Below, piece by piece: positions 59,127 through 61,866 of a stretch of 64,000 bases of DNA. Position 1 is the stretch's first letter. Every line of letters begins with the position of its first letter. The translations under genes and the position numbers were made by a program. Source of the DNA: an uncultured Acidobacteriota bacterium (lineage in GTDB: Bacteria; Acidobacteriota; Polarisedimenticolia; J045); contig CAWDCL010000004.1 in assembly GCA_963800865.1 (NCBI GenBank), positions 1,821,800-1,885,799 on the forward strand, in the 5' to 3' direction. The notes below the pieces were generated by a model, which made no database searches, was not told where the DNA came from, and saw only the letters and a list, made by a program, of their open reading frames with translations.

Positions 59127-61866
59127 ATGAGCAGCAAGTGGGTCTACCGGTTCGGCGGGGGCTCCGCGGAAGGCAGCGCCGGGATGAAGGAGCTGCTTGG
59201 CGGCAAGGGCGCGAACCTGGCGGAGATGGCCAGCCTGGGGCTTCCGGTTCCGCCGGGATTCACGATCACGACCGAGGTCTGCACCTGGTACTACGACCAC
59301 GGCAAGAGCTATCCCGCGGAGCTCGCCGCCCAGGTCACGGCCGCGCTGGCCGAGGTCGAGCGCGAGACGGGGATGAAGTTCGGCGATCCGTCCAACCCGC
59401 TGCTGGTGTCGGTCCGCTCCGGCGCGCGCAGCTCGATGCCGGGCATGATGGAGACCGTGCTCAACGTCGGCCTGACGCTCGACGACGATCCCGGGGCTGA
59501 TCGAAGAAGACCGGCAACGAGCGGTTCGTGCTACGACGCCTACCGCCGCCTGATCATGATGTACTCCGACGTCGTCATGGAGAAGGCCGCGGGCGTCGAG
59601 CCGGCGGAAGGGAAGGGGATCCGGGCCAGCAGCTCGACCGGATGCTCGCCGAGCTGAAGAAGTCGAAGGGCTACGCCTCGGACGCCGACCTCGCGGTCGA
59701 GGACCTGCGGGACGCTCGTCGCGCGCTTCAAGGTCCGAGGTCCGGGAGGTCCTCGGCAAGGACTTCCCCGACGACGCCGATGGAGCAGCTCTGGGGCGGC
59801 ATCGGCGCGGTCTTCTCGTCGTGGAACGGCAAGCGCGCGGTCTCCTACCGCCGCATCGAGGGGATCCCGGACGAGTGGGGCACCGCGGTCAACGTCCAGG
59901 CGATGGTCTTCGGCAACATGGGCGACAGCTCCGCCACCGGCGTCGCCTTCACCCGCAACCCGGCCACCGGCGAGAACAAGTTCTACGGCGAGTGGCTGGT
60001 CAACGCCCAGGGCGAGGACGTCGTCGCCGGGCATCCGCACCCCGAACCCGCTCAACGAAGCGACCAAGAGCGACCAGAACCGCCACCTGCCGTCGCTCGA
60101 GACGGCGATGGCCGTCGGCCTACCGCCAGCTCGACGAGATCCGCACCCGGCTCGAGAAGCACTTCACCGACATGCAGGACATCGAGTTCACGATCCAGGA
60201 CGGACGGCTCTGGATGCTGCAGTGCCGCATCCGGCAAGCGCACCGGGACCGCGGCGCTGAACATGGCGATGGACATGCTGGCCGAGCAGCTGATCGACGA
60301 GAAGGAGGCGGTGCTCCGCGTCTCGCCGGCCCAGCTCGACGAGCTGCTCCACCCGATCGTCGACCCGGCAGCCGAGAAGAGCGCGAAGCCGCTCGCTACG
60401 GGGCTGCCCGCGGGGCCGGGCGGCGCCTGCCGGGCAGGTCGTCTTCACCGCCGACGACGCGGTCGCGTGGGCGCAGGCAGGGCAAGAAGGTCGTGATCCT
60501 CGTGCGCGAGGAGACCAACCCCGAGGACGTCGAGGGGATGCGGGCCGCCGAGGGCATCCTGACCGCCCGCGGCGGCATGACCAGCCACGCCGCACTCGTC
60601 GCCCGCGGCTGGGGCAAGTGCTGCATCGTCGGCTGCCGGCGCGCTCGCAGGTCGATGTCCACGCGAAGACGGTCAGCGTCGGCGGCACGACCCTCAAGGA
60701 GGGGGACTGGGTCACCCTCAACGGGACCCGGGGACGGGTCTACGCCGGCCGGCTGGCGATGATCGAGCGCCGCGGAGAACCCGCGCTTCGTCGAGTTCAT
60801 GAAGATCGTCGACCGCTACCGGACGCTGGGCGTGCGGACCAACGCCGACACGCCGGACGACGCGCTCAAGGCGCGCGGTTTCGGCGCCGAGGGGATCGGG
60901 CTGTTCCGGACCGAGCACATGTTCTACGGCAAGCACTCGGAGCAGCCGCTGTTCCTGCTGCGCAAGATGATCGTCTCGCGCACCGAGGCCGAGCGCCGCG
61001 CCGCGCTCGACGAGCTCTTCCCGTTCGTCAAGAAGGACATCAAGGACACCCTGGCGGTGATGGACGGCCTGCCGGTCACGATCCGGCTGCTCGACCCGCC
61101 GCTGCACGAGTTCGTGCCGCACCGGCCCGAGGAGCGGGCGCGAGCTCGCCGAGGCGCTCGGGATCGACAAGGCGGAGCTCGACAAGCGGGCCGACGGCGC
61201 TGCACGAGTCCAACCCGATGATGGGGCACCGCGGCGTGCGCCTGGGCGTCACCTTCCCCGAGATCTCGGAGATGCAGGTCCGCGCGATCCTCGAGGCGGC
61301 GGTCGAGCTGATCGAAGGAAGGCAAGGCGGCCTACCCGGAGATCATGGTCCCGGTCGTCGGGATCAAGGCCGAGCTCGATCACCAGAAGGCGATCGTCGA
61401 GCGGATCCACCGCCGAGGTCGCGGCGAAGTACGGCGTGCCGAAGATCGAGTTCCTCTACGGGACGATGATCGAGGTCCCGCGCGCCGCCCTCACGGCCGA
61501 CCAGATCGCCGAGACGGCGGAGTTCTTCTCGTTCGGGACCAACGACCTGACGCAGATGACCTTCGGCTTCTCGCGCGACGACATCGGCGGCTTCGTGCCG
61601 GACTACATCGAGAAGAAGATCCTCCCCGCCGACCCGTTCCAGATCCTCGACCGGGAAGGGCGTCGGCCAGCTCGTGACGATCGGCGATCGAGCGGGGCCG
61701 CAAGGCCCGCCCGACGCTGAAGATCGGGATCTGCGGCGAGCACGGCGGCGAGCCCTCCTCCGTCGAGTTCTGCCACCACGCGGGCATGAACTACGTGTCC
61801 TGCTCGCCCTTCCGCGTTCCGATCGCCCGCCTCGCCGCCGCCCAGGCGGCGCTCGGCGCGCGCTGA
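59127..61866 (+). pseudogene. ppdK: Pyruvate, phosphate dikinase gene carrying many (≥15) single-base insertions, mostly G, and one 7-nt duplication, so the ORF is fragmented into ~10 frame-shifted pieces
   Basis: All PPDK segments are recognisable in alternating frames: [34 protein letters not shown]…, [44 protein letters not shown]…GVAFTRNP…NAQGEDVVAG, YRQLDEIRTRLEKHFTDMQDIEFTIQDGRLWMLQ, …[47 protein letters not shown], …[18 protein letters not shown]…, …[20 protein letters not shown]…, …[46 protein letters not shown]. Junctions were reconstructed by hand, for example gccgGgcatc, gtcgGcctac, gcagGgcaag, gaagGgcgtc, atcgGcgatc. Confidence 0.85.

Follow-up and report, generated by a model that had tools for sequence, protein, structure and literature searches.

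In a 64,000-nt stretch of DNA from an uncultured Acidobacteriota bacterium (the window), the coding region for pyruvate, phosphate dikinase (ppdK) at 59127-61866 on the forward strand (2740 nt) is found only in frame-shifted pieces, which raises the question of whether the gene is broken in the organism or only in its deposited sequence. Judged from sequence comparisons, it is very probable that ppdK is a real gene, almost certainly functional in the organism, and that it looks shattered because of a local consensus error in a deposited long-read metagenome assembly.

Identity of the gene and its surroundings

In both three-frame translation and a GC3 frame plot, the reading frame across this region hops repeatedly. 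The DNA as deposited holds no single uninterrupted ppdK frame and no frame that encodes more than a fragment, and the called fragments reach 184.8, 132.4 and 123.2 bits on NCBIfam model TIGR01828, against a cutoff of 843.45. When 22 bases are taken out, a PPDK frame without stops is obtained. This repaired gene, projected as 904 codons onto the closest full-length relative (L001), scores 1270.5 bits and covers profile positions 2-865 of 865, a full-length match that holds only after removal of the inserted bases. The repaired translation is 91.4% identical to P0001, and PPDK chains in the PDB, for instance 1kbl, match it at E=0 when aligned end to end. A stretch of 22 residues and the phosphohistidine motif GGMTSHAA stand between the breaks in the three-frame translation, as do the C-terminal PEP/pyruvate-site motifs GTNDLTQ and CGEHGG, bearing out the sequence-only reading in its claim that the protein is conserved between the breaks. 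Beside known PPDKs (TIGR01828; PDB 1kbl, 1dik) the repaired gene is typical and full-length, with GGMTSHAA and CGEHGG in place, whereas the gene as written encodes fragments only.

The surroundings of ppdK are in good order. The gene order guaB-mgtE-recO-glyQ-glyS-ppdK-PIN/PhoH-dksA is the same in the window and in L001 to L004, and the two immediate neighbours, both on the forward strand, are intact: glyS upstream (56931-59060, 709 aa) and a PIN/PhoH-like ATPase gene downstream (61886-63205, 439 aa) align to L001 without indels, and for each the exact protein is on record. In the case of glyS, a Logan contig (L005) differs by 5 SNPs and 0 indels. The flanking coding sequence, about 11.5 kb in all, aligns to L001 with no net frameshift, in agreement with the earlier claim of a shattered gene among clean neighbours; secA, which had been described as adjacent, lies 8 kb away at 48265-50991. 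L001 has a blemish of its own in that gene, where a +2/+1 insertion pair garbles 8 codons. Rapid frame switching is seen in the window's frame plot at ppdK only, and no second shattered gene was seen in the window, the comparison with close relatives covering 49145 onward. Outside ppdK, a crude codon-usage gene finder leaves other stretches of the window unassigned, of which at least one contains a long open frame and others are overlapped by such frames. No tRNA genes were found in the window.

Number, spectrum and limits of the insertions

The frame of ppdK is broken by 21 events, namely 20 single-base insertions and one 2-base insertion, with 0 deletions. In the nucleotide alignment to L001 (92.5% identity) there are 22 gaps, all of them extra bases in the window (25 nt), and a frameshift-aware protein alignment returns 19 '+1' shifts, a '+2' at 59628-9, a '+2' at 60637 and an extra codon at 60484-6, the '+2' at 60637 being a merger of two single insertions, at 60636 and 60646. 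The repeated shifts of the sequence-only reading are thus found, but its tally of at least 15 +1 shifts was too low, and one of the 21 events is a +2. All of the frame-breaking insertions fall within an anomalous patch on the forward strand, 59477-61683, at a density of about 1% (21 events in 2207 nt) and with a mean spacing of 110 nt that looks random (coefficient of variation 0.84).

The individual insertions, all on the forward strand, were placed by alignment to relatives. The 5'-most is a G at 59477 (gacGctc), which is uniquely placed, and placed alike against L001, L002 and L059; it is followed by a C at 59502 (gatCgaa), a uniquely placed A at 59533 (gctAcga), the dinucleotide AG at 59628-59629 (gccAGcag, a +2 shift in nucleotide and frameshift-aware alignments), a G at 59714 (gacGctc), an A at 59738 (ccgAggt) and one extra C in the CC pair at 59777-59778 (acgCCga), with L059 among the relatives aligned at 59502, 59533, 59714 and 59777-59778. 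In the middle of the gene there is one extra base in gggC at 60029-60032 (the C or one of the G's, by nucleotide and protein alignments) and one in tggCCgT at 60112-60115 (C being favoured by L059), then an A at 60229 (cgcAtcc), one extra C at 60426-60427 (gcgCCtg), a G at 60473 (ggcGcag, in nucleotide and frameshift-aware alignments), one extra base within ctgCCGGc at 60636-60639, a C at 60646 (gctCgca) and a G at 60765 (atcGagc). An extra AAG codon beside AAG at 60484-60486, present in nucleotide and protein alignments, keeps the frame and may be natural. Towards the 3' end, an A at 61143 (gcgAgct) precedes several events whose reading depends on the relative chosen: at 61195-61197 a C (cgaCggc) against L001 or one G of GG against L002, at 61311-61312 (ctgATcg) an A against L001 or a T against the closer L058, and at 61656-61661 an A of AA against L001 or a C at 61661 against L058. 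One extra C at 61413-61414 (ccgCCga) and one extra G at 61683-61684 (atcGGcg) were placed with L058 among the relatives.

The inserted bases amount to about 9 C, 5 G, 6 A, 0-1 T and one AG, a composition at odds with the 'mostly G' of the sequence-only reading. Its homopolymer-extending spectrum likewise finds no support, since roughly 8 of 19 single insertions equal a neighbouring base, against 44-52% by chance, and the other 11 (gacGctc, gctAcga and ccgAggt among them) differ from the base on either side; what had been taken for a 7-nt duplication (aggtccg) is the single inserted A at 59738, L001 and L059 both reading ccgggtccggg.

If spread evenly, the chance of all 21 events falling in ppdK would be about 1e-15. 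The damage does not extend over the whole gene. Relative to L059 and L001, there is 1 window-specific substitution in 58342-59405 (at 59064), one at 59406, and 23 in 59500-60162, the part of the patch for which a close sister sequence makes such a count possible, or about 3.5%. The anomalous block therefore begins at about 59.4-59.5 kb, some 280-370 nt inside ppdK, together with the first insertion. In the first ~280 nt of the gene there are 0 window-specific changes, where about 10-12 would be expected at the patch rate, and the next 660 nt hold the 23. A block that starts inside the gene fits a patch of sequence, and not gene-wide decay. The gene is also about 3% more divergent than its neighbours in comparison with every close relative.

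Inactivation, recoding and intact relatives

A genuine and very recent inactivation of ppdK, with the insertions present in the DNA of the cell as a young pseudogene, is improbable. Such a reading would account for all events lying in one gene with essential neighbours untouched, as selection would allow, and decaying bacterial pseudogenes (for instance those of host-restricted bacteria) resemble ppdK in carrying many frameshifts in a single gene between intact neighbours. In addition, dN/dS is 0.24 for the repaired gene against L001 and 0.12 for intact L001 against L002, and 13 of 24 window-specific substitutions in the 5' third of ppdK are at codon positions 1-2. However, bacterial pseudogenes are known to be deletion-biased, so the ratio of 21 insertions to 0 deletions is incompatible with one, and even without a bias its binomial probability is <1e-6. 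Unlike decaying pseudogenes, ppdK has no deletions and no nonsense substitutions, with no stop codon in the repaired frame, and it lacks a gene-wide rise in substitutions, the boundary of the damage being internal. Relaxed selection across the whole gene is not supported by a dN/dS well below 1, by the clean first ~280 nt, or by the lineage-specific amino-acid changes, of which the window has 34 and the intact sister L001 has 26. The excess changes lie mostly beside insertion sites, yet their clustering there is not beyond chance. In a test of mutation types, the G/C share of resolved differences was 0.40 in the patch, 0.41 in the flanks and 0.55 between L001 and L002.

The gene is uninterrupted in every relative for which DNA is available (L001, L002-4, L057, L058 and L059), which also speaks against inactivation. 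L059, 98.75% identical in glyS, is without the 9 events it covers, and L058, 97.2% identical in the neighbouring genes, has none of the 4 insertions within its span; L001, L002, L057, L058 and L059 are free of all the shifts. The fragments themselves (59127-59657, 60799-61221 and 61436-61720) are on record from one 3,269,294-bp contig only, as singleton clusters, and appear in no independent assembly on record. Metagenome, genome and protein searches returned no contig covering the interior of ppdK nearer than about 96% nucleotide identity (L059, L058), and a flexible pattern spanning two insertion sites had no match in JGI metagenomes. For repaired segments, no protein above 85% identity was found by a search that seems to cover only roughly 0.8-1.75x the query length. 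The short-read Logan contig L005, from a sample with the same strain, ends at 59228, 102 nt into ppdK, and other short contigs of this strain (L006-L011) begin at 62459 or later, outside the patch.

Programmed recoding, whether by ribosomes repeatedly shifting +1, by slippage in transcription or by RNA editing that takes out the extra bases, would fit shifts that all run in one direction (+1) in a protein well conserved between the breaks. Against this, the 21 sites have no common slippery motif, homopolymer run, stop or rare codon context, and no shift is conserved in any relative, even where neighbouring sequence is 98.75% identical. We know of no bacterial system that corrects some twenty sites in one mRNA, and recoding is so improbable here as to be nearly negligible. 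It is also very improbable that a single burst of real insertions struck the roughly 2.2-kb tract, through an insertion-only, tract-limited mutational process and with recent loss of ppdK. Such a burst might follow recombination between diverged ppdK alleles, with heteroduplex mismatches resolved by keeping both bases in tandem, or might be due to a tract of error-prone repair synthesis that adds bases.

In comparison with these readings, an artefact is the best-supported call, as judged from the sequences compared: the 21:0 ratio, the stop-free repair, the start of the block within the gene, the intact relatives and the single-contig origin of the fragments all support it. The preference of the sequence-only reading for artefact over pseudogene decay stands. 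The reasons it gave do not, as the insertions are neither homopolymer-extending nor G-dominated and include no 7-nt duplication, and nothing points to low coverage. One counterpoint is that the patch lies wholly inside one gene. An error patch blind to gene boundaries would be so confined in only a few percent of cases, whereas the lesions of a real pseudogene would be confined to one gene automatically.

Possible sources of a consensus error

The source is probably a long-read-style assembly of the Nanopore/Flye type, as suggested by the 3.27-Mb single contig, the names of sister contigs and MFD MAG titles; the tie to a Nanopore/Flye/Medaka project is one of contig naming and shared samples only. 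In the same ENA submissions, related contigs are named in the style of Flye and contain many split genes. For Microflora Danica, the long-read pipeline used Nanopore reads, Flye and one round of Medaka (PMC12313526), and Nanopore-only consensus is known to retain frameshifting indels (Sereika et al. 2022, PMC9262707). The present case is like the latter in its long single contig, in genes split by single-base indels, and in orphan proteins known from the assembly only. In contrast, classic Nanopore-only errors are homopolymer-linked, comprise both insertions and deletions and occur dispersed over low-coverage contigs, whereas the ppdK patch has insertions only, no homopolymer link and a tie to the third codon position, and occupies 2.2 kb of an otherwise clean region.

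In one form of artefact, ~2.2 kb of the contig would derive from a single long read or very few of them, a thin or unpolished patch whose random errors were left uncorrected by polishing. This is a possibility to which we give some weight but which we consider on the whole unlikely; as an artefact it overlaps with the explanation preferred here. The ~1% density, the random-looking spacing, the strand asymmetry of the inserted bases (about 6 A against 0-1 T), the sharp 5' boundary inside ppdK and the many frameshifts that other contigs from these submissions contain all speak in its favour. However, raw long-read errors comprise deletions and mismatches besides insertions, and in other, noisy contigs of the project the frameshifts are a mixture of +1 and -1 (about 8 to 5) rather than 21:0. 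Because those contigs show both directions, the insertion-only pattern of ppdK is not simply the project's usual noise. The ~3.5% substitutions in 59500-60162 would be too many for read error under current Nanopore or HiFi chemistry and look like real allelic divergence.

Random errors should also ignore codon position. Here, a doublet of two different bases in tandem at a third codon position can account for 19 of the 20 single insertions, a fit that, with a null probability per event of 0.59-0.66, corresponds to p = 4e-4 to 3e-3 for an association that was spotted after looking at the data. The base pairs of these doublets (12 G/C, 4 A/G, 2 A/C and 1 C/T) resemble real third-position differences. 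The inserted A's were considered as a bar to a two-allele model, an objection that was dropped, as A/G makes up 19% of real third-position differences. Exceptions are the T at 61312, which as judged against L058 lies between codon positions 1 and 2, and 61413, which doubles an identical base; the 2-nt event at 59628-59629 is not explained by tandem alleles. Lineage-specific third-position changes number 38 in the window and 64 in L001, and the addition of 21, one per insertion event, brings the window's count to parity. Of the 21 insertion sites, 7 coincide with positions variable among three relatives, which is no enrichment over the background of 0.315.

The doublet pattern suggests a consensus built from mixed haplotypes. 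As the likeliest mechanism, reads of two non-identical templates would have piled up over roughly 2.2 kb inside ppdK, and consensus calling or polishing would then have put down both alleles in tandem, instead of one, at some of the single-nucleotide differences between them. Since each such event adds one base, only insertions would result, and their preference for third codon positions would reflect the sites at which related alleles mostly differ. As templates one may think of a pair of haplotypes that occur together and carry divergent ppdK alleles, or of ppdK reads from other organisms, the gene being unusually conserved. For instance, 26 metagenome contigs and 17 genomes contain an exact copy of a 24-mer from ppdK, among them MAGs of Myxococcota, Planctomycetota, Fibrobacterota and Thermoanaerobaculales, and since it is shared so widely, cross-recruitment of foreign ppdK reads is plausible; none of these matches is closer than 88%, and the source contig itself is absent from them. 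Compared with random errors in a thinly covered patch, a mixed-template consensus is the better fit, in view of the third-position association together with the ~3.5% substitutions. It explains the confinement to one gene only by assuming heterogeneity or cross-mapping specific to ppdK. Collapsed strain heterogeneity is a similar case, in that the ~3.5% substitutions set in at a sharp internal boundary, ppdK has ~3% extra divergence and L005 ends in the gene, but it usually yields chimeric SNP patterns or contig breaks, as opposed to the tandem alleles that we infer here. No description of such tandem writing was found in a targeted literature search.

If the insertions were real, they would represent an undescribed tract-limited insertion process, a possibility strongly opposed by the evidence. 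If they are an artefact, as is most likely, orphan ppdK fragments have already entered protein databases as singleton clusters, and such patches could be flagged and repaired by a signature that combines breaks made of insertions only, doublets at third codon positions and an abrupt increase in private substitutions within an otherwise clean contig. The deposited genome would then wrongly seem to be without PPDK, distorting the metabolic reconstruction of this acidobacterial lineage.

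Extra bases in the ppdK reading frame

Frame switching every 100-300 nt is confined to ppdK in a GC3 frame plot of the window (G+C 73%), and three-frame translation of 59127-61866 (forward strand) shows the PPDK frame stepping forward repeatedly along a coding region of 2740 nt, one above a multiple of three. In a global nucleotide alignment to L001, the closest full-length relative (92.5% identity in ppdK), there are 22 gaps, all of which are extra window bases, with no deletion among them. Twenty of the gaps are single-base, one spans 2 nt (59628-59629) and one 3 nt (60484-60486). 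A frameshift-aware protein alignment agrees, giving twenty +1 shifts, one +2 shift and one extra codon. The insertions run from 59477 to 61683 with a random-looking spacing (mean 110 nt, coefficient of variation 0.84).

That the frame is broken had been recognised in a sequence-only reading, but several of its particulars do not hold. The supposed 7-nt duplication is a single inserted A at 59738, with L001 and the closer relative L059 (a JGI contig with a partial ppdK) both carrying ccgggtccggg. The insertions, described as mostly G, mix C, G and A; judged against L058 (a second such contig), the base at 61312 is a T. Nor are they homopolymer-extending, as the inserted base matches a neighbouring base in approximately 8 of 19 single insertions, a random level (expectation 44-52%), and 11 of the 19 are flanked by two different bases. 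The secA gene, cited as adjacent, lies 8 kb upstream. The in-frame event is an extra AAG adjoining AAG (AAGAAG) relative to both L001 and L002, a further relative with an intact gene, and may be a naturally duplicated codon or a product of the artefact that we favour for the other insertions.

Relatives, in which ppdK is intact, share the window's gene order (guaB-mgtE-recO-glyQ-glyS-ppdK-PIN/PhoH-dksA-methyltransferase), and positions 49145-64000 are colinear with L001 at 94.4% identity. Alignment to L001 covers ~11.5 kb of coding sequence in the flanks and shows no net frameshift there; indels are limited to two pairs, each self-compensating, in secA and in the variable C-terminus of a band-7 gene. 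Compared with the window, secA of L001 (window 49841-49866; L001 ~697-725) contains a 2-nt and a 1-nt insertion separated by 25 nt, whereby eight codons of L001 SecA become an arginine-rich out-of-frame stretch (RSRWRSRRPAGA, versus LALEATGRG in the window); this looks like a compensated error, again of insertion type, in the L001 assembly rather than in the window. In the band-7 gene (52059-52067), two differences relative to L001, +1 and -10 nt, are separated by 8 nt and sum to an in-frame -9; they occupy a short Ala/Pro-rich segment of variable sequence immediately before a conserved zinc-ribbon-like CxxC...CxxC tail. The 66-nt spacer preceding the ribosome-binding site of ppdK (gaaggag) is poorly conserved relative to L001, with five small indels, and holds a GACGAC-type short repeat run at 59086-59112 (gacgacggacgacgacgcacgacgac).

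The underlying gene and its close relatives

Removal of the extra bases leaves ppdK stop-free. The sequence scored was a 904-codon projection onto L001, from which the extra AAG codon was also dropped; the closest full-length PPDK homologues, from Acidobacteriota/Thermoanaerobaculia-type metagenome genomes, are 904 aa. The repaired protein scores 1270.5 bits against TIGR01828 (cutoff 843.45) and spans the whole profile, is matched end to end by solved PPDK structures, and is 91.4% identical to the reference protein P0001. The dN/dS of repaired ppdK versus L001 is 0.24, far from neutral, compared to 0.12 for the intact genes of L001 and L002. When L002 is used to polarise them, private amino-acid changes number 34 in the window and 26 in L001, its intact sister; the slight surplus lies mostly beside insertion sites, where the choice of deleted base is arbitrary. 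The gene beneath the insertions is healthy.

In the nearer relatives, the L059 gene (glyS 98.75%, ppdK 95.65% identity to the window) reads open for 344 codons, and none of the nine events from 59477 to 60112 is present in it; their placements agree with those obtained from L001. The four events from 61311 to 61683 are missing from L058 (97.2% in downstream genes, 93.5% in ppdK), and the partial gene of L057 (~94%) is open over 728 codons. Short-read contigs of virtually the same strain (99.2-100% identity) end before the patch. One such contig, L005 (Logan ERR10755939), covers 56361-59228 with five SNPs and no indels in 2868 nt, and stops 102 nt into ppdK; two of the five SNPs fall within its final 170 nt, and may signal that a polymorphic stretch begins there in that sample. 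Relative to every close relative (L059, L058 and L001), ppdK is ~3% more divergent than its neighbours (92.5% versus ~96% for L001), and dS between the intact L001 and L002 is highest at ppdK. Recombination at the locus, or an unusual diversity of alleles there, may lie behind this extra divergence.

When L059 serves as the sister and L001 as the outgroup, one private substitution of the window falls in 58342-59405 (at 59064), a further one at 59406, and 23 in 59500-60162, whereas those of L059 are evenly distributed. The contrast across ~59.45 kb is significant (window versus L059, 2 vs 11 against 23 vs 12), so the anomalous block starts 280-370 nt inside ppdK, where the first insertion falls. 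Gene-wide relaxed selection would not have spared the first part of ppdK. A true young pseudogene, whose one real support is that the patch is confined to a single gene, is quite unlikely. At ~3.5%, the private substitutions exceed the read error of current long-read chemistry, and look like a divergent allele. Programmed recoding of ppdK is excluded for practical purposes, the shift sites having neither a shared motif nor conservation.

Possible two-base doublets at third codon positions

Nineteen of the twenty single insertions can be read as a tandem pair of unlike bases at a third codon position, for instance AC[G][C], CT[A][C], CG[A][G], GC[C][G] and GG[G][C]. Random insertions passed through the same alignment procedure, which served as the null, meet this criterion in 59-66% of cases, giving p = 4e-4 to 3e-3 for an association that was spotted post hoc, after viewing the data. 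The pairs (12 G/C, 4 A/G, 2 A/C, 1 C/T) resemble true third-position differences, which between the window and L001 are 49% C/G, 22% C/T and 19% A/G. Private third-position substitutions in ppdK number 38 in the window versus 64 in L001 (102 versus 119 in the flanks), a deficit that alone has p = 0.07; adding 21, one per insertion event, brings parity. At least two events do not fit the pattern (the 61312 T versus L058, and C/C at 61413), and the 2-nt event is unexplained by it.

Origin of the insertions

Exact look-ups trace the window proteins, including the ppdK fragments, to one 3,269,294-bp contig in NCBI and ENA. The fragments 59127-59657, 60799-61221 and 61436-61720 are singleton clusters, seen nowhere else; the large protein search gave only proteins of ~0.8-1.75 times query length, and same-species ppdK fragments of other sizes may escape it. 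Because the fragments are already in public databases, the frameshifts belong to the deposited sequence and did not arise at a later step. Flye-style names are carried by sister contigs of the same ENA series. From MAG titles in a genome scan ("MFD....bin", "contig_N") we infer that the source belongs to the Microflora Danica project, whose long-read pipeline combined Nanopore reads with Flye and a single Medaka round (PMC12313526). Frameshifting indels are known to persist in Nanopore-only consensus sequences (PMC9262707). In L055 (4702-7330) and L056 (1175-8975), two long contigs of that ENA series (ERZ25039489, ERZ25039463), PPDK is split into 3-4 pieces, and genes next to it are also split (pyruvate kinase, dehydroquinase, an integrase, PEPCK, G3P acyltransferase and GPD). 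In these contigs the shifts go both ways (~8 +1 versus 5 -1), and general frameshift noise is therefore common in that data set.

The shattered ppdK is real in the deposited sequence but most likely not in the organism, a consensus artefact being the best reading of the insertions. The earlier suspicion of an assembly artefact is to that extent borne out, but the plain low-coverage patch it invoked accounts for the clustering while leaving the 21:0 direction and the codon-position bias unexplained. We suggest that reads of two non-identical templates were stacked across a ~2.2-kb stretch. One possibility is a pair of haplotypes whose ppdK alleles diverge; another is the recruitment of foreign reads to an exceptionally conserved gene. 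The latter option is raised by the exact recurrence of the ppdK 24-mer CTCTGGGGCGGCATCGGCGCGGTC (LWGGIGAV; 59789-59812) in 26 JGI metagenome contigs and 17 species-representative genomes, with carriers that include MAGs labelled Myxococcota, Planctomycetota, Fibrobacterota, Thermoanaerobaculales and others. The PPDK protein is ~80% identical between such groups, an unusually high conservation. The polisher would have retained both alleles at some of the differences, a consensus that maximum likelihood could favour if a one-base deletion in every read is cheaper than a substitution in half of them. Such a two-template artefact would jointly explain why only insertions occur, why they are biased in codon position, why private substitutions accompany them and why the block begins inside the gene, and the insertion signature is possibly a useful diagnostic for long-read metagenome assemblies.
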